Shown here: positions 852-42,185 of the stretch, in pieces
Layout: every line of letters starts with the position of its first letter
Position numbering within the stretch: the stretch's first letter is position 1
Virus record (IMG/VR): IMGVR_UViG_3300009537_000043
Coordinates: 1 to 42,981 of that record
DNA: 42,981 nucleotides
Reading direction: 5' to 3' (one strand)
Source: a virus
The notes under the pieces: model-generated
Databases searched by the model: none
What the model saw: only the letters and a program-made list of their open reading frames with translations
What the model was told of the DNA's origin: nothing
Translations under genes and position numbers: made by a program

Positions 852-854
852 GAT

Positions 855-1802: not shown

Positions 1803-2038
1803 ATACACTGCGATTCACTTCAAAGAATCCTATGAGGTGGAGAGAGTGCTGTCCAGATTGTGGATTCTTGTTAACAGAATTGGAATCTGCTATGTTGGAA
1901 AAGGTGAAGACGTTTGATTGTCCACGTTGCAAATCACATTATGCTATTGAAGATTTCAATTATGAGATGAACGAAAAGCATATGGCTCAACATCATAATC
2001 ATGCGAAAGCTGACCTATCACAAGAGGAGCAAGAATGA
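1799..2038 (+). CDS. Small zinc-ribbon protein
   Basis: CPDCGF...CPRCKSHY. ATG 1799 overlaps the ligase stop (ATGA) and follows a GGAGG at 1790-1794. The ORF track also offers an upstream start at 1757. Confidence 0.5.
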   Translation: MNTLRFTSKNPMRWRECCPDCGFLLTELESAMLEKVKTFDCPRCKSHYAIEDFNYEMNEKHMAQHHNHAKADLSQEEQE

Positions 2039-2963: not shown

Positions 2964-3723
2964 TATCATTAACTATGGAAACAGTGTCAATCCACGTGGT
3001 CAGGAGACTTTCGAGATTCTGAACTACACTACACGTGTTCCCATGAATCGTGCAGCATTGTCCGTAGTGAACAGAGAGCTTGGATACAAGTTTCTGTTTG
3101 CAGAGGCTTGGTGGATTCTCATGGGTGACAACCGTGTTTCAACTATCGAGCCTTACTCAGGACAAATTGCCTCATTCTCTGACAATGGAATCACCTTTGA
3201 TGGAGCATATGGACCTGAAGTAATTAGTCAATTAGACCACATAGTGGACACACTCCACAAGTCTCCTGACTCTCGACAGGGTGTAATGACTATATGGAAA
3301 AAGAATCCTCGTAAGAGTAAGGATATTCCTTGCACTATCTCTGACCAGTTTCTGATTCGTGACAACAAGCTTCATGTTATCCACAATATGAGAAGCTCAG
3401 ACATCTGGCTTGGTTGGCCCTATGATGTATTTAACTTTTCCATGATTTCACTCTATATTGTGAAGGCATTGAATAAGTGGATGCCAACCCTGGACCTTGG
3501 TGACTTGTATCTTAATGCCGGCAGTCAACATCTGTATCGTAAAAACATTGCAGGAGCGCAACGATGCTTGACTGCTCCTCATTCCTGGGATTATAAACCA
3601 CTTAACGTGAATGAGTTCAGAGATAGTAATGATGTCTTGGCTTACTTGGATTCCATGAAAGACAAGAATATCAAAGCAACAACAGTGAGCTATTTGAAAG
3701 ACTTAGTCAAATCAGCAGGATAA
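2830..3723 (+). CDS. Thymidylate-synthase-superfamily enzyme, probably a dCMP 5-hydroxymethylase or 5-methylase rather than canonical ThyA. The start is uncertain (2830, 2869 or later)
   Basis: ThyA-family motifs AEAWWILMGDN, SPDSRQG, catalytic DIPCT, NMRSSD and GSQHLY. The core FLIRDNKLHVIHNMRSSDIWLGWPYD resembles recalled T4 gp42. The 5' 134 nt overlap the kinase gene. Confidence 0.8.
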   Translation: MNSKNTSNTTSKPMEQETILPNLFHPSRTFLNLDINQIWLKVLADIINYGNSVNPRGQETFEILNYTTRVPMNRAALSVVNRELGYKFLFAEAWWILMGDNRVSTIEPYSGQIASFSDNGITFDGAYGPEVISQLDHIVDTLHKSPDSRQGVMTIWKKNPRKSKDIPCTISDQFLIRDNKLHVIHNMRSSDIWLGWPYDVFNFSMISLYIVKALNKWMPTLDLGDLYLNAGSQHLYRKNIAGAQRCLTAPHSWDYKPLNVNEFRDSNDVLAYLDSMKDKNIKATTVSYLKDLVKSAG

Positions 3724-3724
3724 T

Positions 3725-4135
3725 ATGAACGATAGAATTATAGAATTAATGTATGTAGCCAAAAGTATTGCATCAGGGTCTCTTGACCCGTATAAGCAAG
3801 TAGGATGTCTTATTCTTGATGCTGATGGTGTGGTAATTTCAACAGGTATTAATCACTTAGATAGAACTGCCCCAGTTTCCTTATATAAGGAACGTGAAAA
3901 AAGACGTCCATACATGATTCATGCGGAACTAGCTGCTCTAGGTGACATTAACCGTCACCATGGACGGGGTCATACAGTAATAGTAACTCTACTTCCATGT
4001 GTTCATTGCATGACTGCTCTTGCAGCATTCAAGATTAAGGAAGTATATTATCGAGAAGCCTATGAGAAGGATTTAATGGCATTAGATGTCGCGATTCACC
4101 ATAACATTATCTGTCAACAGGTGACAATTCTATGA
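3725..4135 (+). CDS. dCMP (deoxycytidylate) deaminase
   Basis: Zinc-deaminase motifs HAELAAL (HAE) and LPCVHCMTAL (PCxxC). 136 aa. Confidence 0.85.
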   Translation: MNDRIIELMYVAKSIASGSLDPYKQVGCLILDADGVVISTGINHLDRTAPVSLYKEREKRRPYMIHAELAALGDINRHHGRGHTVIVTLLPCVHCMTALAAFKIKEVYYREAYEKDLMALDVAIHHNIICQQVTIL

Positions 4136-6000: not shown

Positions 6001-6377
6001 CACCTGAGAAAAGATTTTGGGTTTATCTTAGAGAGCATGGTTTCGATGGCCATGTAACTCGAATTGAGAATACTGCCGGCATTGGAACACCAGACGTGAA
6101 CCTTGTCCGAAAGGGTTGTGAGATGTGGCTTGAGTTGAAAGTAGCTCCTCCAGGTAAAGTCTTGATTCGTAAGGAACAAAGGGTATGGGGTTATCATCAT
6201 GCCAAAAACGGTGGTAACGTGTATGTGTTATCACTATGGGAGAAAGTTATCAATGTGTATATGTATCCACTTGAAACAGAGAAGCACGATGACAAGTATC
6301 AGAAAATAACATCAGAACCAATTGCAGTATTCCATCAACATGAAGTAGAGAAATTATTGAACTTTATAACTATATGA
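5997..6377 (+). CDS. PD-(D/E)xK nuclease (VRR-NUC-like)
   Basis: GIGTPDVNLV...MWLELKV fits PD...(D/E)xK. 126 aa. ATGA coupling to the polymerase gene. Confidence 0.55.
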   Translation: MTPEKRFWVYLREHGFDGHVTRIENTAGIGTPDVNLVRKGCEMWLELKVAPPGKVLIRKEQRVWGYHHAKNGGNVYVLSLWEKVINVYMYPLETEKHDDKYQKITSEPIAVFHQHEVEKLLNFITI

Positions 6378-6679
6378 AACAAACAGTATTCGTGGTCCAA
6401 GAGACCGAACACAACATTGAACTTGCTAGGGAATATGGAGATTTCCATGTTATCCTAACCTATAAAGACATTGAAAAGGGAACTGAGCACATGCTCGCAA
6501 AGATACAGAGACACCTTGAAGGAGTAGTTAATTGGAAGGACTACATCCTCTGTGTTGGAGACCCTGTTGCAATAGGTCTGACTCTCGTAGTAGCACTTGG
6601 ATACACTAATGGAGTGATTAATGTGCTACGGTGGGACAAGAGAAGTTACAAATACAAAACAGATGAAATCAAACTATGA
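6374..6679 (+). CDS. Hypothetical protein
   Basis: 101-aa ORF, translationally coupled on both sides (ATGA overlaps). No motif recognised. Confidence 0.5.
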   Translation: MKQTVFVVQETEHNIELAREYGDFHVILTYKDIEKGTEHMLAKIQRHLEGVVNWKDYILCVGDPVAIGLTLVVALGYTNGVINVLRWDKRSYKYKTDEIKL

Positions 6680-7197
6680 ACGCAGAACTAAAAGACATCA
6701 AAGAACTCGTTCGCTTTACTCAACAATTGCAGGCTGAGATAGAGCAAGATGAGACCAAGCTCCAGGCAAAGAAAGACAGGCTGGAGTTGTTCATGACAGA
6801 CCTTATACCTGACTTTATTCTAGGTATGGGTTTGTCGGAAGTTAAACTGGATACAGGTGAAACTATATCCGTGGGAACGAAATATTTCGGTAATATTTCA
6901 AAGGACAGAGCGGAAGCTGCTTTCAAGTGGCTTCGAGAACACGAGCATGGTTCGTTAATCAAGACATCTGTTTCTGCTACCTTCGGTGCAGGACTAGACG
7001 AACAGGTTGACTACACATTGCTGAAGCAATTTATCGAAGAGAATGAAATAGGTGCTGAGATGCAGGACAAGGTCCATCCTCAGACACTGAAATCATTCAT
7101 CAAGAACTCCATGGAAAATGGAGTAAAATTTCCCTATGAACTCTTTGGCGTTTATGTGGCCAAGGAATTAGTAGTGGAGAAACCAAAAACAAAGTAA
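6676..7197 (+). CDS. Hypothetical protein with an N-terminal coiled coil
   Basis: 173-aa ORF in the replication block. No motif recognised. Confidence 0.5.
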   Translation: MNAELKDIKELVRFTQQLQAEIEQDETKLQAKKDRLELFMTDLIPDFILGMGLSEVKLDTGETISVGTKYFGNISKDRAEAAFKWLREHEHGSLIKTSVSATFGAGLDEQVDYTLLKQFIEENEIGAEMQDKVHPQTLKSFIKNSMENGVKFPYELFGVYVAKELVVEKPKTK

Positions 7198-7209
7198 TAC
7201 CATAATACA

Positions 7210-8058
7210 ATGAAACAAACAAAGACAAAACAGATGGATACAGCACCCGTTGTGGACGAAACAGAATACAATTGGGGTGAAGAACAGGGAGCAACAGGGT
7301 TTGAGGCAACCCGTCAAGAGGACTTGGGGATTCCGTTCCTGAGCCTGCTCCAGAAAGGTTCACCTGAAGTGGACGAAACACACAAGAACCATGAACTCAA
7401 GAAAATTGAGGGTGCGAAAGGTGGTATGTTGATTAACACCGTCACCCGTGAGATTCTCTACACCCGTGAAGGCGAGCCTCTCAAGTTCGTCCCAGTGTTC
7501 CATGAGAAGCTGTTCCAGGAATGGAAGCCTCGTAACCTGGGAGGAGGGTTTGTTGCTTCTCATAAGAGTCCCATCATTCTGAGCAAGTGCATTCGCAACT
7601 CGGATAACCAGGATATGTTGCCTAACGGTAACGAAATCAAAACCACGTCATACTTCTATGGGTTCGCCTTGATTGAAGGACAAGAGCCTGTTCGTATGAT
7701 TATTGCCTTGACCTCTACTCAGTTGAAGAAAGGTCGTGGTTGGTTGAATATGATGCAGACCATCAAGGTGAACGGTAAGACTCCACCAATGTATAGCCAC
7801 GTGTATAATATCACGTCTGACATTGAGAAGAACAATGACGGTAGTTGGTTTGGTTGGCACTTCGAGATTGACCGCATGTTGAATAAGAACGACATGGCTC
7901 TAATCGAGGTTGCCCGTAACGTTGCTACTGAATGTGCGGCTACCAAACTCGCTGCTCCTGAACCTGTTGAGCAACTTGCTGAACACAATGATGGAGAGCC
8001 TACTGAAGCTGATGAACGTGCAGATGCAGAAGCACGTATGGCAGCACGTCGTCGTTAA
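7210..8058 (+). CDS. Hypothetical replication-module protein (possibly ssDNA-binding or annealing, unproven)
   Basis: 282-aa ORF between replication genes, with a charged C-terminal tail, followed by a strong hairpin terminator. The functional guess rests on position only. Confidence 0.55.
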   Translation: MKQTKTKQMDTAPVVDETEYNWGEEQGATGFEATRQEDLGIPFLSLLQKGSPEVDETHKNHELKKIEGAKGGMLINTVTREILYTREGEPLKFVPVFHEKLFQEWKPRNLGGGFVASHKSPIILSKCIRNSDNQDMLPNGNEIKTTSYFYGFALIEGQEPVRMIIALTSTQLKKGRGWLNMMQTIKVNGKTPPMYSHVYNITSDIEKNNDGSWFGWHFEIDRMLNKNDMALIEVARNVATECAATKLAAPEPVEQLAEHNDGEPTEADERADAEARMAARRR

Positions 8059-8078
8059 TTCCACAAGTTAACCATCAC

Positions 8079-8110
8079 GATTGCCCTACGGTTCATCCCG
8101 TAGGGCAATC
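8079..8110 (+). terminator. Hairpin terminator after 7210..8058
   Basis: 13-bp perfect stem gattgccctacgg / ccgtagggcaatc with a 6-nt loop, followed by cttt. Confidence 0.65.
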
Positions 8111-8119
8111 CTTTAAATA

Positions 8120-9646
8120 ATGACTCATTTAACACCTTTCATGATGCAATTGTTCGACGGGAACAAAGATGCATATGGAACATATCATTTTGGAGATTCA
8201 GTTAGGGCTGATGGTAAAGTGAAAGGTCATGGCATAACGCATAAGAGTCCTGTAACTCCCGCCCTATGGAAGAACCATTTAGATGGAACATCTCAATTAG
8301 GTATCGTTCCTATTACTTCAGATAGCACCGTTAAATTCGGAGCTATAGACATTGATGATTATACAGTAGATGTAGCAGCTATCATTCTGAAAATCATTGA
8401 GAACAATTTACCATTAGTGCCTTGTAGAAGTAAGTCCGGTGGACTTCATCTCTACATGTTTCTTTCAACACACATCCCTGCTATTCTGATGCAGGGAAAG
8501 TTAAAAGAGCTTTCAGCTTTTATTGGATATGGTAATGCTGAGATTTTCCCTAAGCAATCAAAATTACTTAAAGAACGTGGGGATGTTGGTCAATGGATTA
8601 ACATGCCGTATTTTGATGCAGGAAAGACAGATAGATACGCATACGGACTAGACGGAAAACCACTTGGGATAGATGACTTCATTAGGTATGCTCAAAAAAG
8701 AAGGGTCACACCAGACCAGCTTGCTGAGTTTAAAGTCGTTGTAGAAGAGCAACTACCAGAAGGTCCACCGTGTCTGCAACATCTTCTAACCACAGGATTT
8801 CCTGAAGGCACACGCAACAATGGATTGTTTAATCTAGGTGTCTATGCTCAGAAAAGCAATCCAGACAATTGGAAGACTATTATTGAAGGATATAATGAGA
8901 AATATCTATCACCACAACTTCCTCCCAAGGAAGTCCTTCTAGTCATCTCGTCACTAACCAAGAAAGAATACAACTACACATGCCAAAAGCAACCTATATG
9001 TAACTTTTGCAACGCTTCTCTTTGTAGGACAAAGAAATTCGGCGTAGGACTTTCTTCAGGTCTCCCTGTTATGGGGTCACTTACGAAGATAAATACAGAA
9101 CCTCCTAAATGGTTCATAGATGTAGATGGTGGTGGACGATTAGAACTAGAGACAGATGACTTGCAGAATCCAATAAGATTCCAAAAGAAGTGTATGGATA
9201 TTCTTAATATAATGCCACCTATTATTAAACGTGAACAATGGACGATAGTAATAGGTGAATTGCTTAAGAATGTTAATGTTATTGAAGTCCCCAAGGAAGC
9301 TACAACCACAGGTCAGTTAATGGTTCTGCTAGAAGAATTCTGCACAAGCAGGTCACAGGAAGAAAGTGCTGAAGAACTTCTAAGAGGAATGGTTTGGTTA
9401 GCTAATGGTGCGTATCATTTTAGATTGCAGGACTTCTTAAATTATCTAATACGTTCAAAATTCGAACTAACAACCAGAAATACGATAGCCAACATTTTTA
9501 GAGAAGCTAGAATACCAGATAAGAAAATCAACATAGGAAACGTCAATGGACGAGCGAGACACGTATCTGTTTATGTGTTGAGCAATATAGAAGCAGACAT
9601 AGAAAAATACAAACTACCAGAACAAAACGAAATAGACCACATATGA
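8120..9646 (+). CDS. Archaeo-eukaryotic-type primase / prim-pol
   Basis: AEP motifs GAIDIDDY (DxD) and SKSGGLHLYMF (sGxGxH). 508 aa, immediately upstream of a helicase. Confidence 0.75.
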   Translation: MTHLTPFMMQLFDGNKDAYGTYHFGDSVRADGKVKGHGITHKSPVTPALWKNHLDGTSQLGIVPITSDSTVKFGAIDIDDYTVDVAAIILKIIENNLPLVPCRSKSGGLHLYMFLSTHIPAILMQGKLKELSAFIGYGNAEIFPKQSKLLKERGDVGQWINMPYFDAGKTDRYAYGLDGKPLGIDDFIRYAQKRRVTPDQLAEFKVVVEEQLPEGPPCLQHLLTTGFPEGTRNNGLFNLGVYAQKSNPDNWKTIIEGYNEKYLSPQLPPKEVLLVISSLTKKEYNYTCQKQPICNFCNASLCRTKKFGVGLSSGLPVMGSLTKINTEPPKWFIDVDGGGRLELETDDLQNPIRFQKKCMDILNIMPPIIKREQWTIVIGELLKNVNVIEVPKEATTTGQLMVLLEEFCTSRSQEESAEELLRGMVWLANGAYHFRLQDFLNYLIRSKFELTTRNTIANIFREARIPDKKINIGNVNGRARHVSVYVLSNIEADIEKYKLPEQNEIDHI

Positions 9647-11148
9647 GAACTATAGTATTAGGACCACCAGGAACAGGGAAGACAACGAGACTACTAGACA
9701 TCGTTGACAGGGAGTTTACGAATGAGATTATGCCAAATGAAATATGCTATGTCTCATTTACCAAACGTGCAGCAGATGAAGCCAAGGAACGAGCCTCTAA
9801 GAAATTCAGAATTAAAGAAAAGAACTTACTCTATTTTAGAACTCTTCACAGTTTAGCCTTTCAACATTTATGTATATCACCTAGTCAGGTTATGGGTTGG
9901 AATGACTACATGAACTTGTGTAAGATGCTAAATCTAACTATCTCTTCTAAGAAGATTACAGATGAATGGGCCTATTCAGGAACAACCACCAAGGGTGATA
10001 GATTATTCTTTCTTGAGAATCTCTCCAGGACAACCAAGCTTCCACTTAGAAAAACTTGGGAAAGATTTATCAATGATGATATTGATTTCAAAGAACTGGA
10101 GCTAGTGGCAGAGACAATCAGGCAATATAAGGAAGTAAGATTCAAATTAGACTTCACAGACATGCTTCAACGTTTCGTGGACAATGGAACAAGTCCTAGA
10201 TTTAAGATGCTAATTGTTGATGAAGCTCAAGATTTAAGTAAGCTTCAATGGGACATGGTTGACATTCTTGAAAAGAGGTCTGATGAATCATGGATAGCTG
10301 GCGATGATGACCAAGCAATCTACACGTGGGCTGGTGCAGATGTAGAACACTTCATCTCTCTTGAGGGTCAACAGGAAGTATTGAACCACAGTTACAGACT
10401 ACCAGGAGGTGTGAAAACTCTTGCAGACAAGATAGCAGGGAGGGTTAAGAATCGTCTGAAGAAACCTTACAATGCTAAGAACAATGCTAACGGTGTAATT
10501 AGAATTAACGATTTCAATACTCTAAACATGAAAGAAGGAACATGGTTACTTCTTGCCAGAAATCTTTATGCACTGTCTGACTATGTGAAGTATTGTATCA
10601 GAAAAGGTTACTTGTTTGAATCAAAGATTAATCCTGACTTTAACCCTGAAACATGGGATGCTATTCGTTGGTGGGAAGCTCTACGTGCTGGTAAGAGTCT
10701 GCCAGCATCTTGCATTAGAGTCATCTATAACTACATGCAGATAAAAACTAGAGTAGTGTTTGGATGTAAGAAGAAACTGGAACTAATTCCTGAGCATGAG
10801 GAACTCGACCTACTCGCACTGATTCACAAATATGGTTGTCTAACTACTGATGCGTGGGAGTTTGCTTTGAACAAACTCTCTAGGACAGAAGTAAGTTATT
10901 ATCAAGCTGCAATCAGAAATGGAGAGAGCCTGGAAGAATCAGCACGTATTCGTATTAGCACAATCCACTCCATGAAGGGTGCTGAAGCAGATAACGTAGT
11001 GCTTGATTGTGATGTAGCTATTAAGACCTATAAAGAGTATGAGAAAAATCCAGACAGTGAACACAGAGTTTGGTATGTAGGTGTAACTAGAACCAAGACT
11101 AATCTCTATTTAATTAACCCCAAGACACAATACTTCTATAACATTTGA
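9643..11148 (+). CDS. UvrD/Rep-like superfamily 1 DNA helicase
   Basis: Walker A GPPGTGKTT, motif II LIVDEAQD, motif III GDDDQAIYTWAGAD, IV NHSYRLP, V TIHSMKGAEADNVVL, VI YVGVTRTK. Confidence 0.9.
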   Translation: MRTIVLGPPGTGKTTRLLDIVDREFTNEIMPNEICYVSFTKRAADEAKERASKKFRIKEKNLLYFRTLHSLAFQHLCISPSQVMGWNDYMNLCKMLNLTISSKKITDEWAYSGTTTKGDRLFFLENLSRTTKLPLRKTWERFINDDIDFKELELVAETIRQYKEVRFKLDFTDMLQRFVDNGTSPRFKMLIVDEAQDLSKLQWDMVDILEKRSDESWIAGDDDQAIYTWAGADVEHFISLEGQQEVLNHSYRLPGGVKTLADKIAGRVKNRLKKPYNAKNNANGVIRINDFNTLNMKEGTWLLLARNLYALSDYVKYCIRKGYLFESKINPDFNPETWDAIRWWEALRAGKSLPASCIRVIYNYMQIKTRVVFGCKKKLELIPEHEELDLLALIHKYGCLTTDAWEFALNKLSRTEVSYYQAAIRNGESLEESARIRISTIHSMKGAEADNVVLDCDVAIKTYKEYEKNPDSEHRVWYVGVTRTKTNLYLINPKTQYFYNI

Positions 11149-11169
11149 GATATGGCTACAAGTCACGAG

Positions 11170-11267
11170 AAAACAGGCCAAAACGGGCCACCGCAAACGG
11201 GCCAAAAAACCAAGATGATACGGGCGACGGGTCAAACCATAGGGCAAAATTTGGCCTAACTATAGCT
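11170..11267 (+). promoter_or_regulatory. Intergenic control region with four ACGGG(C/T)(C/G)A repeats plus motif copy A (CAAACCATAGGGCAAAATTTGGCCTAACTATAGC)
   Basis: Read directly: ggccaaaacgggcca, caaacgggccaaaaaacc, acgggcgacgggtca, then a block of about 30 nt shared with 25072 and 40137. It ends a few nt before the SNF2 ATG. Confidence 0.45.
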
Positions 11268-11272
11268 TACTT

Positions 11273-12730
11273 ATGTTAATCAATAAATACAAACTTCCAG
11301 CCTTTCAGGAAAAGATGAAAGGGTATAAACATCAAACAGAAGCACTAGAGAAATCGAAAGACTTATCTAGATTTGGACTGTTCATGGAACAGGGAACTGG
11401 CAAGAGCAAGGTGACTATAGACAACTTTATCTACTTATTTCTCAATCAGGAGATAGATGGAGTTCTAATTACAGCACCGAAAGCTTTCTACCTTAACTGG
11501 TTTGTGGACGAGTTACCTGCACACCTTCCAGACTGGCTACCAGTTCGTATTAAGTATTGGGATGCAGACTGGACTAACAAGGAGAAGAAAGATGCAGCTC
11601 AATTACTAACAGCTAAGGACGATGTGTTGGACATATTCCTGGTGAACATCGAGGCATTGGCCACGGATAGAGGGATGCAGTTCACTAAAGCGTTTGTGAG
11701 AAGTCATTACACCTTTATGGTGGTTGATGAATCTACTTGTATCAAGAATCATAAAGCTAAGAGAACTAAAGCTGCTATCGAGTTAGGTAGGTTATGTGAT
11801 TTCAGGAGAATCTTAACTGGAACACCAATGGCCAAAGGACCATTAGACATTTATGCACAGGCAGAGTTCTTAGAGAAAAACCTTTCGGGCCACTCTAGCT
11901 TCCTGTCATTCAAGAACTATTACGCTTCCTGGAGAAGAGTTGAGTTCGGTAACAGGTCATATGAGAAGATTGATGGATATAAGAATATACCTGAACTACA
12001 ACAGAAGATAGCAAGCTTCTCTTGCAGGGTTCTAAAATCAGAGTGTCTCGACCTTCCTGAAAAGACGTTTGTTAACAGATATATCGAACAGACGCCGGAA
12101 CAGAAATTGATATATACTGAACTAAAGGAAGAAGCGATAACCTTCTTGTCTAAAGAATCGGTGGTTTCTTCAACATCAGTTCTTACTACTATGATGAAGC
12201 TCCACCAGGTAAACTGTGGTCACGTTAAGAACGACGATGGTGTCATCTGTCACATACCAAGTAACAGGATTGCAGTCCTGATGGAAACTCTTGAAGTGAT
12301 TGATGATAAGGTTATTATCTGGGCACACTTCCAGGAGGATATAAGACTCATAACCGCGGCTCTCATTGCAGAGTATGGAGTTAATTCTGTAGTATCTTAT
12401 TATGGAGCTACATCTATTGACGACCGTAAGTTGAACCTTGAAAGATTTAAGAATGATAAATCATGTAAGTTCTTTGTAGCTAATGAGACAGGGAGTAAGA
12501 GTCTAACCTTAGTTCAATCTGCCTTGAGTATCTATTATTCATACAGCTATTCCCTTGAGACTTGGCTGCAGTCCCAGGACAGGAATCATCGAATTGGTCA
12601 ATCTAGAAACGTCCTCTACATTTCATTTATTATTCGTAAGACAGTTGATGAATGTATTATGAAGGCATTGAGAACTAAGAAGAACATAGCAGACCAAGTT
12701 CTTGATGACTGGAGAAGTAATCTACAATAA
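11273..12730 (+). CDS. SNF2-family helicase/ATPase
   Basis: Motif I EQGTGKSKV, II VVDESTCIKN, III LTGTPM, VI QSQDRNHRIGQ. Confidence 0.9.
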   Translation: MLINKYKLPAFQEKMKGYKHQTEALEKSKDLSRFGLFMEQGTGKSKVTIDNFIYLFLNQEIDGVLITAPKAFYLNWFVDELPAHLPDWLPVRIKYWDADWTNKEKKDAAQLLTAKDDVLDIFLVNIEALATDRGMQFTKAFVRSHYTFMVVDESTCIKNHKAKRTKAAIELGRLCDFRRILTGTPMAKGPLDIYAQAEFLEKNLSGHSSFLSFKNYYASWRRVEFGNRSYEKIDGYKNIPELQQKIASFSCRVLKSECLDLPEKTFVNRYIEQTPEQKLIYTELKEEAITFLSKESVVSSTSVLTTMMKLHQVNCGHVKNDDGVICHIPSNRIAVLMETLEVIDDKVIIWAHFQEDIRLITAALIAEYGVNSVVSYYGATSIDDRKLNLERFKNDKSCKFFVANETGSKSLTLVQSALSIYYSYSYSLETWLQSQDRNHRIGQSRNVLYISFIIRKTVDECIMKALRTKKNIADQVLDDWRSNLQ

Positions 12731-34014: not shown

Positions 34015-35318
34015 ACAGCTAACAAATCATAGTCACTTTCTGCTTTGTCTTGAGGTTTCTTGTTGTGTTTAGACCTTTCTTTAATTGACATCGCTAATTC
34101 TCTAAAAGCATCAGCGCAATGTGAAGCCCAATCATGACAAGGTTTGTCCTTAAAAAGCATTTTGTCTTCATCATACTCCTTATGATACATCTTAAGAGCT
34201 TCAATACCATTTTCACATTTTGCCTTATCAAAGTAGCAACGAGGTAATAAAGCCCTAACAGCTTCGATTCCTTCATCAATGGGTAACTGTTTGCCGATTT
34301 CGAACTTAATTCCCAAGTCTTTTGCAGTTTGCCACCTGGTTTTGGCTGTCGAGATTTCACGAACATCAATGTCGTGTGGTGCATAGTGACGCCCGTAAAC
34401 GTAATTTCGTTCTCGTAGGATTTTCGCATAATGTGCAAACCCTTCTCCATTGTTTTCGTAGTGGTCAATGACTCGAACCTCGAACCCATAGACCTGGTAG
34501 AACCAAATATTACATGTGTCACCTACACCCAAGTCCCATGCTGTATGGACAGGAAGTTTCGACTCATATGGAACATTACAGATGCGTCCTTCTTTCTCTG
34601 CTTTATCCATCAACTTCCCATAATAACTTCCCTGGAGCGGAGCATCAAAGGAGCAATATACTTCCTGTTGAAGCATCTCTTCTGACATACCTGAGTCCCG
34701 CATTTCTTTTACTGCTTCATCGTCCAGAACTTTGGTGTAGTCATTCCCCATTACAGCACCATACCATCGAGGATTGTTCAATGCCATCTGCAACATCTTC
34801 CATCCATGGTTTCTTCCACGTGGAGTGTAAATGAAAAGTGCCCATCCATCATTTTCTGCCAGAATCGGCTGCAAAAACTCCCAAATCTTGGGGTTCATGA
34901 TGCTCCATTCAGAGAAGATGATGCCTTTCGGGTTTGGACCTACTAGAGAATCTGGTTTATCTGCCCCAACTACCTGATAAATTGAATTATTATTCAATGT
35001 TATCTTCATTTCTGTATTATTCTTACTTTTCACCAGTGCTTCGGGAAAAGCAGAGAGAAATGAACGGCCCGTCTTCGTTTTTCCATCCCACGCAATCTTC
35101 TTCCCTTGCGCATACGTAGGAAACAAGTGCCAATACAGTCCTGGTTCATCCATCGTGGCTGTTGCAATCAAGTTAATTGCATTAAGGTCCTTTCCACCAC
35201 GGCGGTGTAGCACCAGGACAGCACGTTTCTTTTTGAATCCTCCTTTTTGAAAGTAAGCCCACAGCGGTCGTTGATACCACCGTGGTTCAAAATCGTAAGG
35301 TATGGAGATTTCAGGCAT
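34011..35318 (-). CDS. Terminase large subunit
   Basis: The ATPase region has LVLHRRGGKD. The nuclease-domain pattern is VHTAWDLGVGDTCNIWFYQ. ATG 35318 overlaps the upstream stop; the ORF track start is 35366. Confidence 0.8.
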   Translation of the reverse strand: MPEISIPYDFEPRWYQRPLWAYFQKGGFKKKRAVLVLHRRGGKDLNAINLIATATMDEPGLYWHLFPTYAQGKKIAWDGKTKTGRSFLSAFPEALVKSKNNTEMKITLNNNSIYQVVGADKPDSLVGPNPKGIIFSEWSIMNPKIWEFLQPILAENDGWALFIYTPRGRNHGWKMLQMALNNPRWYGAVMGNDYTKVLDDEAVKEMRDSGMSEEMLQQEVYCSFDAPLQGSYYGKLMDKAEKEGRICNVPYESKLPVHTAWDLGVGDTCNIWFYQVYGFEVRVIDHYENNGEGFAHYAKILRERNYVYGRHYAPHDIDVREISTAKTRWQTAKDLGIKFEIGKQLPIDEGIEAVRALLPRCYFDKAKCENGIEALKMYHKEYDEDKMLFKDKPCHDWASHCADAFRELAMSIKERSKHNKKPQDKAESDYDLLAV

Positions 35319-35769
35319 CAGTTTCTCCTTCAATCTCTTCTCTGAGTGCTTCCTCCACCGGGGCAACCAGAGATTGAGGGATTCTGGGAATATTGATTAC
35401 TCCAGGTTTAACCTCATTTCCTAATTCATCAAAATGTTTCACCTTGAAAGTGAAGTCACCATCAATATGGGCATCTACCTCGATGGATTTCAACTTCGGA
35501 GCAAGGTAGGAAGCAATTTCTTTAGCGATTGCAATTTTCTGGTCCGTGGTGCAGATTGGAAGCCTTAATACTTTGCCGTCAACAATGGTTTCTTCGGTCT
35601 CTGAGGCAAGTCTAATTAACTCTTCAAACGGGTTGTAGTTGTTTTTTAAGCATAACTCATTTATCCTGCTTCTCACTTCAGCAGGAGTTAACGCACCGCG
35701 AATAGATTTAGTCTCGGAAGGCATACTACGCTCCAAAGAATCGTATGAATGGACCAATTTGTCAAGCAT
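35311..35769 (-). CDS. Putative terminase small subunit
   Basis: 152 aa, the first late gene, translationally coupled to the large terminase. The call is by position only. Confidence 0.45.
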   Translation of the reverse strand: MLDKLVHSYDSLERSMPSETKSIRGALTPAEVRSRINELCLKNNYNPFEELIRLASETEETIVDGKVLRLPICTTDQKIAIAKEIASYLAPKLKSIEVDAHIDGDFTFKVKHFDELGNEVKPGVINIPRIPQSLVAPVEEALREEIEGETDA

Positions 35770-35843: not shown

Positions 35844-36080
35844 GGATAATGGGTAGATGGCACTAGGTTCGTGGAAGATGGCAGAAATGCTCATGCACGA
35901 TGGCGCGACCTCCCTATCATTCACGGTCCACGGTTCAGTTTCCCCATCCCACCCCACCATGGACCAAAAAGAATTCTTCCCTGACCCTGGGAGTCTAGGT
36001 CCATCTAACATGTAGTGCCTGGCCTATGACTCTTAGTCCCATCGAACAATGTTAGGTGCGTCTAACATTATGAGTCATGG
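35844..36080 (-). other. ORF-poor, GC-elevated structured segment between the predicted late promoter and the first late gene (candidate leader RNA or sRNA)
   Basis: Two-tier hairpin 36024-36080 (9-bp outer and 8-bp inner stems). Blocks homologous to 36943-37027 lie in inverted orientation. A 7-bp hairpin plus T-run on the minus sense lies at 35814-35831. Confidence 0.3.
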
Positions 36081-36138
36081 CTAACAAAATTAGACTGCAC
36101 GGCACACGGGCCACGGGCCAGGAAATCGTCATCTATAT

Positions 36139-36167
36139 TTGATACTGGTTGCTACGACTTGTGACAA
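36139..36167 (-). promoter_or_regulatory. Candidate sigma70-type late-arm promoter
   Basis: On the minus strand: TTGTCA (36167-36162), 17 nt, TATCAA (36144-36139). Tandem ACGGGCC ACGGGCC (36106-36120) lies just downstream. Confidence 0.3.
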
Positions 36168-36182
36168 ACTTGCGGAAACCAC

Positions 36183-36211
36183 TTGACAAAATCCATAGAC
36201 CGTGCAACTAT
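36183..36211 (+). promoter_or_regulatory. Candidate sigma70-type early promoter
   Basis: TTGACA (36183-36188), 17 nt, AACTAT (36206-36211). It lies about 60 nt upstream of ATG 36272 and back-to-back with the minus-strand candidate. Confidence 0.35.
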
Positions 36212-36271
36212 CTACTCGTGGACAGGGACGTGGATGAACCCGTCTCAAACCCCACAGAACTAAGAACTAGT

Positions 36272-36733
36272 ATGAAAAACAAGACACAAGCACCTGTAAC
36301 TCCTAGCACTAACGTCATCTCCCTGGAGCAACTCACACCAGAGCAACTAGTTGCGTTGAAAAACCAGCTCAAAGCGCAAAAGAAGGCAAGGTCTAGCAAC
36401 CGTGAGGTTTGGGTCGAAACCGTGGATAAGATGTTGCAAGAGAAGGAGAACGGCCAATTCAAGAATACCACGGCAGATATCCTTGACGCGCTACAGGTTG
36501 CGAAGGCATGGGACGGTCAGGAACGTGAGGTCGAACTCAAGAAGGTCCAGACCCGCAAGCAGTTACACGTCAAGAAGGATGCCTCCAACAAGGACAAGTA
36601 TGGATACAAGGCCAGTGAACATGGATTCCAACTTACTGAAGCCAAGGTAGTTGCATGGTTCACTAGTCAGGACAAGGTTACGCTGGAACGTGTAGCAACT
36701 GCAGTGATTACCGCCGCGAACATGGCCAAGTAA
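36272..36733 (+). CDS. Early protein, paralogue A of 38112..38648, function unknown (basic, Lys-rich)
   Basis: Start taken at ATG 36272 (the track start, TTG 36149, is unlikely). It shares LTPEQL..L..QLKA.KK, EKE.G..FK.TT.DI..AL, KK.Q.RKQ, GYKAS..GF and WF blocks with paralogue B. Confidence 0.7.
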   Translation: MKNKTQAPVTPSTNVISLEQLTPEQLVALKNQLKAQKKARSSNREVWVETVDKMLQEKENGQFKNTTADILDALQVAKAWDGQEREVELKKVQTRKQLHVKKDASNKDKYGYKASEHGFQLTEAKVVAWFTSQDKVTLERVATAVITAANMAK

Positions 36734-36750
36734 CCAGGTATCACCTAGCA

Positions 36751-36781
36751 ACCCGTATGGGAAACACCCATACGGGTTTTT
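36751..36781 (+). terminator. Canonical intrinsic terminator
   Basis: 11-bp stem acccgtatggg / cccatacgggt with a 5-nt loop, followed by TTTTT. Confidence 0.8.
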
Positions 36782-36789
36782 CGTGCCCA

Positions 36790-37320
36790 GACGGTCCAAG
36801 GACGCGTCGGACTCGCTGGCCTATACCTACACCTAGGGACACCAGGAACACGTGCCTTGGTCCATCCCTGCGCGATTGCGGGGCACATTGGGCCGTGACC
36901 CTAGTGTCGAGAGTCATTTTGGCTCTCGATGCTATGGTTCATGGTCCATGGACGGATATTTGGAGTGGACAGGGAGAGAACGCCACTAGCACTCCCTATG
37001 AACGATTAGTGAATCACCCTATTATGCAACATCGAATATTCAAATCAGGCACAATAGGGGTTCAAACTAACCACCTAGCAAACCAACGACTTCCGTTTTC
37101 AGGAATTTGACTATGCAAGTGCGAACAAATCGCAGCTTCATCTTTGACAATACAAAACCACCAGGTTTCCTAGGTTTCATCGTAATCCCTATCACCGCAC
37201 TTGGGTATACGTGCCAACTAGCTTGTTCCCCTACAACTTACGCCGATTTCGAGCCAAAACGGCCCGAAAATCATATTGTTCCAAGTATCGGGCAAGGGAT
37301 ACCTAATAACTAAAGGGGTT
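36790..37320 (+). other. GC-elevated ORF-poor segment with local helices (candidate structured RNA or regulatory DNA)
   Basis: Track ORFs here have implausible composition. Helices include tcgagag/ctctcga (36907-36929) and agggag/ctccct (36971-36997). A block homologous to 35844-35965 lies on the opposite strand. Confidence 0.3.
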
Positions 37321-37445
37321 TTCTTTACATTTAATATAGTTCGTGTTTTTTCACTCCGCTTTTCCGTGTATTTGGCGCGTAAAATCACACACACGTTTAT
37401 TATCAAAAATCCGTCTAAGTAGCAAGCAGCATTCAGTGCCATTGC

Positions 37446-37459
37446 ATAGCAATTGCTAT
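37446..37459. promoter_or_regulatory. 14-bp perfect palindrome ATAGCAATTGCTAT (operator-like)
   Basis: Read directly. It lies 26 nt upstream of the third CCTAGCAA copy. Confidence 0.35.
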
Positions 37460-37511
37460 CACTTACAACGGCCAGTTGTAACCACCTAGCAAATCTAGGG
37501 GTGTTTTGCCT

Positions 37512-37542
37512 AAACCCTAGCAAATCAACCTACTTGGCACGT
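37512..37542 (+). repeat. 31-nt exact direct repeat, copy 1 (AAACCCTAGCAAATCAACCTACTTGGCACGT)
   Basis: Identical to 37617-37647. The start-to-start spacing is 105 bp. Confidence 0.9.
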
Positions 37543-37616
37543 AGCCACGACACTGCTTCCATGTCGTTTTTTCGTCGTTCAATTTTAACACCTATAAACA
37601 CTAGGTGTGTGCCCGC

Positions 37617-37647
37617 AAACCCTAGCAAATCAACCTACTTGGCACGT
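37617..37647 (+). repeat. 31-nt exact direct repeat, copy 2
   Basis: Identical to 37512-37542. Confidence 0.9.
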
Positions 37648-37655
37648 TACGTCAT

Positions 37656-37685
37656 TTCAAAATGAACCAAGCTGTTTGCTATATT
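37656..37685 (+). promoter_or_regulatory. Candidate extended -10 sigma70-type promoter just downstream of repeat copy 2
   Basis: TTCAAA (37656-37661), 18 nt, TGcTATATT (37677-37685). Confidence 0.3.
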
Positions 37686-37722
37686 GAGTTTGCCTTTCTC
37701 CTCTACTCAAACATACGTTAAA

Positions 37723-37843
37723 ACAGGGAGGCTTCAAGTCTATTTGTCCTAATCTTAATCCCATAAAAGCAATATCTATTTCTATTTATGACCTAAGAAA
37801 ATCTACTTTTAATTAAAGCAGAATTTACTCGTAGCCTCCCTGT
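37723..37843. repeat. 11-bp perfect inverted repeat (ACAGGGAGGCT / AGCCTCCCTGT) enclosing a 99-nt AT-rich tract
   Basis: The arms are 37723-37733 and 37833-37843. The interior is visibly AT-rich (ttaatcccataaaagcaatatctatttctatttatg...). Confidence 0.7.
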
Positions 37844-37858
37844 CCCAAGGTCCATGTT

Positions 37859-37893
37859 CCACATACCACATACCACAATCCCACAATCCCACA
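37859..37893 (+). repeat. CA-rich tandem tract (CCACATA x2, CCACAATC x2)
   Basis: Read directly: ccacataccacataccacaatcccacaatcccaca. Confidence 0.8.
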
Positions 37894-38111
37894 TAGAATA
37901 GAACCATACATCCATTCCACATGAGACATGGAGCATCAAATCACTCGTACAAACCCTAGCAGGTCAAAGGTTTGTAACTATTTTCGTAAAATTTTACGAT
38001 TTCGCTTGACGCCATACTAAAAAAAGGCGAGGATACGCCTGTTGACGGAACTAGTAGCATGAAGCGGAGTTCCAAGTCAAGACAGAAAACATAGAAACAT
38101 AGAACAAACAT

Positions 38112-38648
38112 ATGGCAGACAATAAACCTACGAAACCCGGTGCTCAAAAATCGGCTGCACCGAAAACCGCAACTCCTGAAAATGTCGTCCCCTCTGGCAT
38201 TGACCTGTCCAAGCTGACTCCTGAGCAGTTGGCGTCCCTGCAGAAACAGCTGAAGGCTAAGAAGAAGGAGAAGTCCGGCAAGAAGGAAGAGCGGTTTCAC
38301 ATCATTGACACCATGCTCGCTGAGAAGGAAGAGGGCAGTGATGAGTTCAAGCACACCACGCGGGACATCATGAACGCGTTGGTCAAGAATGACCTTGTTG
38401 ACACCACCGAACCCGATTTTGACACGGTGGAAATCAAGAAAATTCAGGCACGCAAGCAGTTCCTGGAGAAAAAGACCGATGAGAAGGGTAACTTGGTCCA
38501 TCCGAAAGGCTCGTTCGGTTACAAGGCGTCTGGTGGTGGCTTCGGTGTCCTGACAGCCTCTCGCATTGCTACATGGTTCTCCGTTCCGGCGAACGTGGCA
38601 CAACTCACTCCTACTCAGACTGCCGCTATCCTGGCGGTGCTGAAGTAA
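38112..38648 (+). CDS. Early protein, paralogue B of 36272..36733, function unknown
   Basis: 178 aa with the conserved blocks listed under paralogue A. It is preceded by an ATAGAA(A/C) leader and followed by a 13-bp hairpin. Confidence 0.75.
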   Translation: MADNKPTKPGAQKSAAPKTATPENVVPSGIDLSKLTPEQLASLQKQLKAKKKEKSGKKEERFHIIDTMLAEKEEGSDEFKHTTRDIMNALVKNDLVDTTEPDFDTVEIKKIQARKQFLEKKTDEKGNLVHPKGSFGYKASGGGFGVLTASRIATWFSVPANVAQLTPTQTAAILAVLK

Positions 38649-38658
38649 GAATGCACAT

Positions 38659-38689
38659 GAGCCTCCCTGTCACACCGACAGGGAGGCTC
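38659..38689 (+). terminator. 13-bp hairpin after paralogue B (no T-tract)
   Basis: gagcctccctgtc / gacagggaggctc with a 5-nt loop. The stem uses the same AGCCTCCCTGT 11-mer as the 37723/37833 inverted repeat. Confidence 0.5.
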
Positions 38690-38723
38690 TCTCACAAATA
38701 AGAACATAGAACTATAGAACAAT

Positions 38724-38978
38724 ATGAAAGTAACATACGAACAGCAACTGGTCCAAGGTCTAATCAATCTTGGTTACACTGAAGATAAATCCTATAAAGG
38801 GAAGTATCGGAAGTTTCGCAAAGAGCCACATGTAGCCTCCCTGTTTGTTGGTAGCCGTGGTGCATTGCGTATTGGTCGAACAGCTTCTGACTCCCACAGT
38901 GTAGGCGACCCAGGAAACAAGACTCCTTCATACATGAAATTTGTCGCATCTGGAGCGTTAACTCTAACCAACCAGTAA
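38724..38978 (+). CDS. Hypothetical early protein
   Basis: 84-aa ORF preceded by three AGAAC units. Confidence 0.5.
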   Translation: MKVTYEQQLVQGLINLGYTEDKSYKGKYRKFRKEPHVASLFVGSRGALRIGRTASDSHSVGDPGNKTPSYMKFVASGALTLTNQ

Positions 38979-38979
38979 T

Positions 38980-39207
38980 ATGACAACTATTTCTACCTTC
39001 CGCACATGTCATGTGACTCCACGTGTTCACAGAGATAACCCACAAGGCCAGGTTACAGGCTTCCATTTTGCATTCTATGAGAATTGCGAATTGTTTGCCG
39101 TAGGTGACATTGACAACGTGGACGTCGAACTGGAGCGTATCCTCAAGGAGTGGATGTATGAGGGTTCGATTCCATCCTGGGCCAACATCAACGAAGTGAA
39201 AGATTAA
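38980..39207 (+). CDS. Hypothetical early protein
   Basis: 75-aa ORF starting 1 nt after the previous stop. Confidence 0.45.
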   Translation: MTTISTFRTCHVTPRVHRDNPQGQVTGFHFAFYENCELFAVGDIDNVDVELERILKEWMYEGSIPSWANINEVKD

Positions 39208-39424: not shown

Positions 39425-39460
39425 GCGTAGCAATCACGCTACATATAGAAAGATAGAACT

Positions 39461-39844
39461 ATGAAAACACATCAATGGGTGAATGTAAGATACAAACAAT
39501 ACCTTGTTCGGTCTATTGAGGCTGACACGTATGAAGAGGCTGTTACAAAACTCAAGGCTATGAATCCTAACGACAGACTTGGTGTAGGTCCAATATCTCA
39601 TTCCTGGGAGTATACGCCGTTTAAAGCTGAAGATTCAGGTCCTACACCTAAGACCCTCACAGCAGAAGTAATTATATCCTTCTTCAAGGCGTTCACAGAA
39701 CTGAATAAAATTAAAAAAGGTAGTAAGAAGGAATATGAAGCACAATACTGGTTTCTTGCCGGTATTCGCTCAAGCAGTCCACAGCAACAGTTACCTCCTA
39801 TTATTGAGATTCTACACTCATCTGGCCGTTCAATCCTTAAATAA
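39461..39844 (+). CDS. Hypothetical early protein
   Basis: 127-aa ORF preceded by an ATAGAA..ATAGAAC leader. Confidence 0.5.
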   Translation: MKTHQWVNVRYKQYLVRSIEADTYEEAVTKLKAMNPNDRLGVGPISHSWEYTPFKAEDSGPTPKTLTAEVIISFFKAFTELNKIKKGSKKEYEAQYWFLAGIRSSSPQQQLPPIIEILHSSGRSILK

Positions 39845-40990: not shown

Positions 40991-41005
40991 CGAGAAAGGC
41001 CAGCG

Positions 41006-41311
41006 ATGAGCGTCGAATATCTAAAGATTCACGGCCAACCATGTGACTGTCCTTTTTGCGGGGCGGAGCGGAAGCTGGCGGCGGAAGCTGCACCGGCGGG
41101 CTCTGATGCGGCGTGTGCGTCCTGCAAATACTTCGTGCCTAGCAAAGAGAACGAATTTAATGGAATCTGTCGCCGTAACCCACCCAGCGTCAAAGACCGC
41201 TTCGGCGTGGACTATTGGCCGACCGTCGGACGCGGAGCGTGGTGTGGTGAATACAAGCCTCAGAACGGCCCGGATCAGGGACGCCGGGCCAGCGACTCTA
41301 AAACTTTATGA
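41006..41311 (+). CDS. Cys-rich hypothetical protein (GC-rich island)
   Basis: CDCPFCG...CASCKYF...GICRR...WCGEY. It is preceded by the duplicated AACGAGAAAGG(C/T)CAGCG leader. An alternative-frame ORF (41043..41330) is judged less likely. Confidence 0.5.
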   Translation: MSVEYLKIHGQPCDCPFCGAERKLAAEAAPAGSDAACASCKYFVPSKENEFNGICRRNPPSVKDRFGVDYWPTVGRGAWCGEYKPQNGPDQGRRASDSKTL

Positions 41312-41517
41312 AACCTTCTCGAAAAACTGAAATCGCCAACCGGCGTTCGGTGCAGCCGGATTGTTCTACGGCGTCGAACTGCTTCACGCGAGACTGGCAC
41401 TGGACGCTTCGGAGCATGGAAATCTACGCCGGGCCGCTGTGCCGCCGATGTGGTGAGAGTGTCCCAAGTACCGATGGCCTCTGCGAAGAATGCGAGGTCG
41501 AAAGGCTGTATGACTAA
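41308..41517 (+). CDS. Small zinc-ribbon protein (GC-rich island)
   Basis: CRRCGE...CEECE. ATGA-coupled to the previous gene. Confidence 0.45.
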   Translation: MKPSRKTEIANRRSVQPDCSTASNCFTRDWHWTLRSMEIYAGPLCRRCGESVPSTDGLCEECEVERLYD

Positions 41518-41541
41518 GCCGCAGAACGAGAAAGGTCAGCG

Positions 41542-41850
41542 ATGAGACACAAAACAAATCGAGAACTATATGAACAGCTTGAGGCAATGAGTCCTGACCG
41601 AACTGCCAAGACCCAGCCGGGTTCTGGTGCAGCAAGTGGTTCGGAAGCACATCGCAAGGAAATGCTCAATGCTGCCCTGGACGATATAGGTCTGGCACTG
41701 GAGAAATTTGGGAAGACTTTCGGAACAGGAACAGGCGCGAAATACCTGGCGCGTGAAGAACTCAAGGACGCTCGGGACTTCCTAAAGGCCGTGCTTCCGA
41801 ACGATGGAACTCAGCGGCCCGGCACACCGGTAACTAAAATAACAAAATGA
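41542..41850 (+). CDS. Hypothetical protein (GC-rich island)
   Basis: 102-aa ORF preceded by the second copy of the duplicated leader. Confidence 0.5.
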   Translation: MRHKTNRELYEQLEAMSPDRTAKTQPGSGAASGSEAHRKEMLNAALDDIGLALEKFGKTFGTGTGAKYLAREELKDARDFLKAVLPNDGTQRPGTPVTKITK

Positions 41851-42185
41851 AATACTCGTCACATGAAGAACTAATGAAGAAATTGGAGAGCAAACCTATT
41901 GCTGAAGTAAGAGTATGCAAGGAGGGTGTAGAGAAGGAGGTAAAGGTTAAGATTCTCAATCCCAGGGAGTTCACACGTGATGAAGCTATACTTCACATAT
42001 TAGCATGCAACCGCAACTTGAAGCATCTTCTCCATTGGCAGATGACTTCGCGGGCAGTCCTTGTCTCCCTGTATTTGCAGGACAATATTACTGATGAGAT
42101 TTATGACTTCATAGACCAGATTATTGCAGATGGGGTTCTGATAAATCTTGATTGGAAACTTGATGCACCTGCAGTGGAGAACTGA
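41847..42185 (+). CDS. Hypothetical protein
   Basis: 112-aa ORF, ATGA-coupled. Confidence 0.5.
   Translation: MKYSSHEELMKKLESKPIAEVRVCKEGVEKEVKVKILNPREFTRDEAILHILACNRNLKHLLHWQMTSRAVLVSLYLQDNITDEIYDFIDQIIADGVLINLDWKLDAPAVEN

Follow-up and report, generated by a model that had tools for sequence, protein, structure and literature searches.

The combination of a DNA-binding protein with repeated sites close to its gene is known from several systems. In iteron-plus-initiator modules (i.e., lambda O with ori-lambda, the iterons of Rep_3, RepA and pi, and P4 alpha with ori and crr), the gene of a small DNA-binding protein is located where transcription arms diverge, together with three to six short, phased sites and an AT-rich stretch near them, and in P4 two repeat clusters flank the initiator gene. 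In phi29, p6 and p4 are small, abundant early DNA-binding proteins whose multimeric complexes on non-coding DNA couple replication initiation to the early/late switch. The first-step-transfer region of T5 has one or more early genes followed by a large untranslated region in which repeats, inverted repeats and palindromes abound; this region is conserved throughout the phage group and contains the injection stop signal, and second-step transfer depends on the pre-early proteins A1 and A2 (bioRxiv 10.1101/866236). Here, a locus comparable in some respects to these systems is described from the IMG/VR virus record IMGVR_UViG_3300009537_000043, which was analyzed over its whole stretch of 42,981 nucleotides, referred to below as the window. 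Two paralogous genes, named A and B, enclose a non-coding gap in this window:

36272..36733, + strand: gene A, the short paralog (153 aa, pI 9.55), with orthologs in 12 of the 12 genomes compared
38112..38648, + strand: gene B, the long paralog (178 aa, pI 9.38), with a disordered 27-residue N-terminal tail
36734..38111, no strand assigned: the non-coding gap (1378 bp), G-poor on the + strand and CTAG-rich, with an array of repeats and palindromes

The finding is best classed as a conserved orphan protein pair with a defined cis array, akin to the known combination of a binding protein and repeated sites. The reading that we favor, and hold tentatively, is that A and B may be site-specific DNA-binding proteins of a new family, with the CTAG-core array between their genes as the main target. 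The window is a complete, circularly assembled phage genome, in which a 99-nt terminal overlap leaves a genome of about 42.9 kb. It was compared with 11 further metagenomic genomes or large contigs, each with a homolog of B (L001, L002, L005, L007-L011 and L016-L018), making 12 in all, which represent a clade of uncultured podoviruses, probably from freshwater habitats.

With the iteron modules, the locus shares the gene of a small (here putative) DNA-binding protein beside repeated short sites and the position at the divergence of transcription arms, and a 77-nt AT-rich segment in an inverted repeat is a candidate counterpart of their AT-rich stretch. It differs from them in that neither A nor B is homologous to any initiator in Pfam, PHROGs or NCBIfam, Phage_rep_O, Rep_3 and TrfA included, that the repeated CTAG sites extend over about 1.3 kb with irregular spacing and in mixed orientation rather than as a few phased copies, that two paralogous genes flank the array whereas an iteron array lies within or beside one gene, and that the gap has no DnaA boxes. 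The likeness to phi29 p6 and p4 would lie in small early DNA-binding proteins forming multimeric complexes on non-coding DNA; however, there is no homology, phi29 relies on protein-primed replication at its genome ends, and p6 binding is largely non-specific, whereas here defined 15-bp pseudo-palindromes and a family A polymerase are present. As in T5, an early gene precedes a large, repeat-dense untranslated region that is kept across the phage group, but the two regions have no sequence relationship, T5 is a siphovirus and not a podovirus, and the window has neither an evident long terminal repeat nor DnaA boxes in the gap.

Like H-NS, Lsr2 and HU, A and B are small proteins, basic and rich in Lys, and their N-terminal helix could serve in oligomerization. 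The resemblance does not extend further, as no Histone_HNS or Lsr2 match in Pfam was obtained for A and B (E<=10) or for 52 family members (E<=1) in searches covering H-NS, MvaT and Lsr2, HU/IHF proteins (Bac_DNA_binding) gave no Pfam, PDB sequence or Foldseek match, no other fold match was found, and a Q/RGR-type, AT-hook-like motif is absent from the family alignment. Additionally, the N-terminal tails are Pro/Ala/Ser/Thr-rich linkers with a net charge of only about +2, unlike the basic tails of H1-like proteins. A preliminary description of the locus, made from the sequence alone, had likened the composition of both proteins to that of nucleoid-associated or histone-like proteins while seeing no H-NS, HU or Lsr2 signature; the profile scans uphold the absence of these signatures, and no specific likeness to such proteins was found.

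A and B align over their full length with 43% identity across 160 columns (BLASTP, E=4e-21), and all of the colinear blocks that had been noticed are present (LTPEQL.., EKE.G..FK.TT.DI..AL, [LI]KK[VI]Q[TA]RKQ, [YF]GYKAS..GF and [AT]WF[TS]), which confirms their paralogy and identifies them as an old duplicate pair. The copy number in the window is exactly two, as determined by tblastn and a family hidden Markov model (HMM) in six frames. Neighbor-joining analysis of the first eight genomes placed A and B in a clade each, with the sole exception of the most divergent A, that of L005. Mean identity is 54.5% within B and 41.5% within A, and it is 39% when A is compared with B. These separate clades and identities indicate that the duplication is older than the clade and that A is evolving faster. 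The dN/dS values of 0.18-0.23 for A and 0.06-0.15 for B show that both are under purifying selection. The Lys-rich composition described earlier was also confirmed (13.7% in A and 14.0% in B, with the pI values given above), and 15 of the 16 A and B proteins tested are basic, with pI values of 8.7-10.1 and net charges of +2 to +13. A third paralog, or kinship of A and B with the small terminase (TerS), was sought in the window and none was found.

The suggestion that related phages be surveyed for the same paired arrangement was followed, and the layout was found in 12/12 genomes: TerS on the - strand, 240-580 bp of intergenic DNA, an A-type gene of 134-170 aa, a gap of 1.2-1.8 kb in which no conserved gene was called and a B-type gene. 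A and B are indeed the first two + strand genes past the divergence of the late (-) arm and the + arm. Their designation as early genes at a regulatory hub is borne out as far as this position is concerned, and the two labels themselves derive from the position and from sigma-70-like promoters rather than from observation.

The family has a narrow distribution. An exhaustive HMM search of 1.84 billion representative proteins returned only 45 clusters, two of them marginal, and word-indexed searches returned 51 B-type and 15 A-type proteins, all of them metagenomic and either without a name or spuriously named. Nothing significant was obtained for A and B from Pfam, PHROGs, NCBIfam, PADLOC or a PDB sequence profile, and the 50,697 records of GenBank phages gave no match by DNA or by tblastn of B. 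The genomes of 185,579 prokaryotic species gave no match either, and thus nothing points to a prophage origin. The closest GenBank outgroup genome is devoid of both the A/B proteins and a CTAG-rich gap. The earlier statement that the pair matches no annotated module holds for these databases as well as for PDB folds and, with the B model, for BFVD, and A and B are a new, clade-restricted orphan family. One IMG/VR locus, L006, was rejected as unrelated, since its common ground with the family is limited to the LTPEQL motif.

The gap that separates the two genes is non-coding in all respects examined. No open reading frame in it is conserved across genomes, and the matches between the gaps of the window and L002 occur in all six frames, which indicates conservation at the DNA level. 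No tRNA or tmRNA was found in the gap, nor any Rfam family, the only match being BTnc201, whose 22.7 bits fall short of the gathering score of 105. Because CTAG contains TAG, recoding of TAG to Gln and of TGA to Trp was tried; no long open reading frame and no cross-genome similarity resulted, and a hidden recoded gene was rejected. The length of 1.2-1.8 kb is kept in every genome, and C exceeds G on the + strand in 12/12, while alignment of the gap sequences succeeds only between close relatives (74-76% column identity). The elements of the array in the window are:

37485..37499, + strand: pseudo-palindrome CCTAGCAAATCTAGG, with inverted CCTAG/CTAGG half-sites 10 bp apart, center to center
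37591..37605, + strand: second pseudo-palindrome CCTATAAACACTAGG
37512..37542, + strand: exact 31-nt direct repeat AAACCCTAGCAAATCAACCTACTTGGCACGT, copy 1
37617..37647, + strand: exact 31-nt direct repeat AAACCCTAGCAAATCAACCTACTTGGCACGT, copy 2
37723..37843 (arms 37723-37744 and 37822-37843), no strand assigned: inverted repeat ACAGGGAGGC.../...GCCTCCCTGT, enclosing 77 nt of AT-rich DNA
37950..37967, + strand: half-site copy CAAACCCTAGCAGGTCAA; the -35 box of the B promoter follows after about 45 nt

CTAG occurs 10.2 times per kb in the gap of the window and 2.4 times per kb elsewhere. Across the genomes, gaps contain 3.4-10.7 copies per kb compared to 1.2-2.9 outside, a density 2-8 times higher in 11/11 genomes counted. 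Six of the 13 copies of CCTAGCA in the window fall within the gap, all on the + strand, and the 9-mer AAACCCTAG is common to 5 of 7 mutually unalignable gaps, a result matched by 0 of 300 dinucleotide-preserving shuffles. Two kinds of element make up the sites, namely half-sites, AAC[CA]CCTAG[CT]A, and a pseudo-palindrome of 15-16 bp, C[CA]TAG-YAAAY-[CA]TAGG, which takes the form CATAGTAAACATAGG in L001, L007 and L017. Nineteen pseudo-palindromes were counted in 12.5 kb of gaps and 10 in 118 kb outside (1.51 versus 0.08 per kb, an 18-fold higher density), and the element is present in the gaps of 10/12 genomes. In the window, L001, L010 and L017, a half-site copy (AAACCCTAGCA) precedes the start codon of B by about 110-180 nt. 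Half-sites placed one helical turn apart are the classic geometry for a dimeric binder, which the spacing seen here suggests. The inverted repeat around the AT-rich 77 nt is kept in L002 and L011, and this AT-rich feature was confirmed only in close relatives.

Other features of the gap were also recorded. The ~120 nt directly past the A terminator (36782-36900) are conserved in the window, L002 and L011, and fold stably on the + strand, with several stems (z=-4.4); covariation is negligible, with only three alignable sequences. The motif TTTTCGTGCC past the A terminator recurs in most genomes. At 37855-37895 (+) there is a C/A-rich, G-free run, CCACATACCACATACCACAATCCCACAATCCCACA, for which a rut-like RNA, a strand bias or a binding motif are possible causes, and TCCCACA is found in 6/8 gaps. 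The 10-11-mer pair ACAGGGAGGC and GCCTCCCTGT occurs a second time, in opposite order, where it makes the hairpin after B (38660-38688), and this is kept in L002 and L011.

The two proteins were modeled with AlphaFold2 using the family alignment. Mean predicted local distance difference test (pLDDT) scores were 81.7 for B, with a core above 90, and 85.8 for A, and the tails were poorly ordered (pLDDT below 50 for B residues 1-27, and about 56-72 for the unstructured A residues 1-17). In both models the tail is followed by a helix of 19-20 residues (LTPEQL..L..QLK), a second helix and a short beta element (FK.TT), and then by a short helix, a variable loop, an 18-residue helix, the GYK loop and C-terminal helices. 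The low-complexity tail and coiled-coil-like segment proposed from the sequence thus find a partial counterpart in the poorly ordered N-terminus and the first helix. The 18-residue helix carries the invariant IKKIQARKQ.LEKK. Across both paralog types, which are 35-45% identical, K109, Q112, R114, K115 and Q116 are invariant together with T83 and G136, and K110, K120, T82, Y137 and K138 are nearly so. The clustering of conserved residues on one helix and the next loop, and residue types typical of nucleic-acid contacts, suggest a surface of this kind.

In the B model, a helix (58-70), bridges at 72, 79 and 82, a helix (83-92), a 10-residue loop, a long helix (103-120) and bridges at 122, 128 and 138 succeed one another, and this order of helix, beta, helix, loop, long helix and two beta elements loosely recalls a winged helix. 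Searches for winged helix-turn-helix (wHTH) or helix-turn-helix (HTH) domains gave only sub-threshold Pfam matches in 3-5 of the 52 members (wHTH-Calcineurin_assc in 5; DUF6293_C, RovC_DNA-bd and HTH_32 in 3 each), and no wHTH protein appeared among the PDB and BFVD matches listed by Foldseek (best E=0.63). With no Foldseek match obtained, the fold of A and B is either new or too diverged for recognition.

A pseudo-palindrome with helical-turn spacing that is conserved amid unalignable gaps requires a reader, which should be a conserved dimeric DNA-binding protein. For this, A and B are obvious candidates because they are clade-specific and basic, carry invariant K/Q/R/T/Y/G residues on a helix and loop, and are encoded by genes that bracket the array in every genome. 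The notion of a DNA-binding pair flanking its own target array, put forward in the preliminary description, is thus sustained by the conserved layout of pair and array, the basic charge, the K/Q/R helix and the palindrome, and is not sustained by any recognized DNA-binding fold. The link between the proteins and the array is a correlation rather than a demonstration, and several observations weigh against it. The Foldseek check on AlphaFold models, which had been recommended, was run and gave no fold match for either protein, in PDB with the A and B models or in BFVD with the B model (best E values of 2.2, 0.63 and 1.9). The A model contains helices and a hairpin at 58-63 and is devoid of wing strands, and the loop between the two candidate HTH helices is variable and about 10 residues long, which is not that of a canonical HTH. 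The gaps of L005 and L010 do not contain the 15-bp site, yet the conserved B helix is unchanged in both. In L005 a different palindrome, GTATCCA-AAAAC-TGGATAC, is found twice with the same A-rich spacer, and the A helix has R114F; co-variation of protein and site, which would speak for the link, is possible from this single case. P0099, a marginal distant homolog (E=1.6e-4), is encoded by a single-copy early gene in a different PolA-encoding phage contig, and no large array lies downstream of it. Gene order is generally conserved in the clade, so that the adjacency of A, gap and B is weak evidence of a functional link, and another conserved phage protein or a host factor could read the sites.

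Signals for the expression of A and B were identified around both genes, the promoters being read from sequence:

36183..36211, + strand: sigma-70-like promoter of A, with -35 TTGACA (36183-36188), a 17-nt spacer ending in TGc and -10 AACTAT (36206-36211)
36750..36783, + strand: intrinsic terminator of A, with a 12-bp perfect stem (36750-36778), a 5-nt loop and T5
38006..38034, + strand: sigma-70-like promoter of B, with -35 TTGACG (38006-38011), a 17-nt spacer and -10 GAGGAT (38029-38034)
38660..38688, + strand: hairpin after B, of 11-13 bp, GC-rich, strong and conserved
36254-36262, 38099-38107, 38706-38722 and 39453-39461, + strand: ATAGAAC(T/A)A leaders, found also in L001 (~10636-10652), L007 and L011

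The A promoter scores under the threshold of a generic promoter scan; its CTTGACA box and spacing are kept in most relatives, and L001 has TTGACA-17-TATAGT. At the B promoter, GCTTGAC...GCGAnGAT is kept across relatives. The terminator hairpin of A is preserved through compensatory changes in L011, L001, L009 and L010, and a hairpin with a T-run follows A in 9/12 genomes. The hairpin after B has no U-run in the window or in most relatives, and it is thus not a classical terminator. Of the terminator hairpins attributed to each gene in the preliminary description, that of A is canonical and intrinsic, and that of B is a conserved hairpin without a U-run. The early + strand genes have no Shine-Dalgarno sequence and carry instead one or two copies of ATAGAAC(T/A)A directly upstream of the ATG, which may be a clade-specific translation-initiation or leader signal.

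In the proposed scheme, the host RNA polymerase would transcribe both genes from their own sigma-70-like promoters once the DNA is available, A presumably forming a monocistronic unit closed by its strong terminator. The proteins would then dimerize, either as homodimers or as an A:B heterodimer, and the K/Q/R-rich helix (B residues 107-120) and GYK loop would read the inverted half-sites of C[CA]TAG-YAAAY-[CA]TAGG and also the related half-sites AAC[CA]CCTAG[CT]A. With 6-16 sites occupied over about 1.3 kb, a large nucleoprotein complex may form where the two transcription arms meet. Possible roles of this complex are, in order of preference, a replication origin or replication-transcription switch, a regulatory roadblock that would control the B promoter and read-through into the early arm, and a DNA-entry checkpoint. 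The origin or switch would agree with a location where the arms diverge, with the AT-rich segment inside the inverted repeat and with a cumulative GC-skew minimum near 38-39 kb of the window. This role is weakened, however, by the absence of DnaA boxes, which also led to the rejection of a host DnaA-dependent origin in the gap, and by the fact that the skew minimum can be explained by gene orientation and gap composition. A bolder version, which we regard as quite unlikely, is that A and B have a previously unseen nucleic-acid-binding fold and act as a heterodimeric or hierarchical pair on the ~1.3 kb CTAG array, which would constitute a phage-specific organizing center. Such a center, in a podovirus whose structural genes are T7-like, could serve as an initiator-independent origin of replication or as a DNA-entry checkpoint of the T5 kind, and the cis element would include the duplicated genes on its flanks as integral parts that co-evolve with it.

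Podovirus early regions commonly begin with genes for host takeover or anti-defence (e.g., T7 gene 0.3), and A and B, at the start of the early arm, could be host-takeover, anti-defence or general nucleic-acid-binding proteins without any specific relation to the gap. Their position beside it would then simply reflect conserved gene order, and they would act by non-specific coating of DNA or RNA or by binding a conserved host protein such as RNA polymerase, a helicase or a nucleoid protein, a target that, if invariant, fits the invariant helix surface equally well. This explanation, which is somewhat unlikely in our judgment, agrees with the lack of a detected DNA-binding fold, with the unchanged B helix in genomes whose gaps have no palindrome and with the marginal distant homolog that has no array. 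It is less compatible with the basic charge of A and B, as DNA-mimic anti-restriction proteins are strongly acidic, and with the absence of a PADLOC match or a recognizable anti-defence family, and it leaves unexplained both the retention of two paralogs astride the array in 12/12 genomes and the identity of the reader of the 15-bp sites. A role on RNA was also considered. A and B are largely helical as well as basic, and the top fold matches of A, none of them significant, are to small ribosomal proteins. As RNA-binding regulators, they would act in antitermination, transcript stability or translation on early-arm transcripts, with the hairpin after B and the ATAGAAC leaders as candidate targets. 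The common leader in place of Shine-Dalgarno sequences, the conserved hairpins without a U-run after B and the structured + strand segment past the A terminator (z=-4.4) are in line with this. No RNA-binding domain was detected, however, nothing supports transcription of the gap, covariation in the structured segment is negligible, and inverted sites in both orientations with a 10-bp half-site spacing point to the recognition of duplex DNA; a role on RNA appears very unlikely.

A module for two-step DNA entry would give another meaning to the same layout. The genome end would be located in the TerS-A intergenic region, A would enter and be expressed first, its terminator would halt transcription-driven DNA pulling, and the repeat-rich, gene-free gap would be the injection-stop region, with A and later B required for the entry or release of the remaining genome. 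The near-consensus -35 box and strong terminator of A, followed by 1.2-1.8 kb of gene-free DNA rich in repeats and palindromes in 12/12 genomes, are reminiscent of T5, whose injection-stop region is likewise large, untranslated and repeat- and palindrome-rich and whose transfer needs A1 and A2 (bioRxiv 10.1101/866236), and the conserved ..TTCCCCATCC..CCATAAAGAATTCTT between TerS and A could mark a terminus or packaging site. Against this stand the circular assembly with its 99-nt overlap and the contig break points of the relatives, which have no consistent position and point to no common terminus. There is also no homology to T5 A1 or A2 (tblastn of B against all GenBank phages found nothing, and there is no PHROG match), and the gap has no DnaA boxes. 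Two-step entry is not known from podoviruses with T7-like structural genes, and we regard this explanation as very unlikely.

The assignment of A and B as readers of the CTAG array would, if true, provide a new DNA-binding family, possibly with a new fold, and a compact module of protein and sites, and it would identify the main cis-acting control region of these genomes, whether an origin, a switch or an entry checkpoint. If they do not bind it, they are still a strongly conserved orphan family, predicted to be early and highly expressed and a candidate for host-takeover activity, and the array needs another reader. The module is in either case conserved across the entire uncultured podovirus clade, and the concrete outcome consists of a 45-cluster family, two confident models without a fold match and a defined 15-bp site.

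The rest of the window is organized in two arms. The - strand from 12794 to 35769 carries T7-like podovirus structural and packaging genes, which encode a portal, a scaffold- or protease-like protein, a major head protein, tail tube proteins, the large terminase (TerL) and a positional small terminase. The + arm extends from 36149 to the end of the window and continues from 1 to 12730, and it encodes a DNA ligase, a thymidylate synthase, a family A polymerase, Pam3 gp33/gp34-like proteins, an AEP primase, and UvrD- and SNF2-type helicases. No tRNA was found in the window, no RNA polymerase family was matched among the larger window proteins scanned, and no origin-binding initiator or regulator was recognized in the profile searches run on this genome. 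The nearest GenBank records are distant, the portal being 43.5% identical to that of the uncultured 'Manatee Spring' podovirus and ~37% to those of HTVC010P-type pelagiphages. The small-terminase slot beside TerL is filled by 35311..35769 (-), which has no PHROG or NCBIfam match and is named TerS by position only. A and B were themselves considered as small terminase subunits and rejected, with no TerS match in Pfam or PHROGs and a sole TerS match in BFVD (B model) at E=2.8.

Accessory early genes vary among the relatives. A 249-aa pentapeptide-repeat protein is encoded at 6240-6989 of L002 and Gad2-family (anti-Gabija) proteins at 13113-13958 of L001 and 7673-8575 of L010, none of which has a counterpart at the matching position of the window. 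The G+C content is 49-53% in 36001-37000, 38001-39000 and 41001-42000, at the start of the + arm with genes A and B included, compared to ~35-45% in most of the genome. Finally, the TerS-A intergenic region contains, at ~35905-35975, a strongly conserved non-coding element, GACCTCCCTA..TTCCCCATCC..CCATAAAGAATTCTT, in which AAGAAT.CTT is invariant in 8/8 genomes and AAGAATTCTT is present in 7/8. This element is far better conserved than the A-B gap, and it could be a late promoter or leader, or a packaging or terminus signal.

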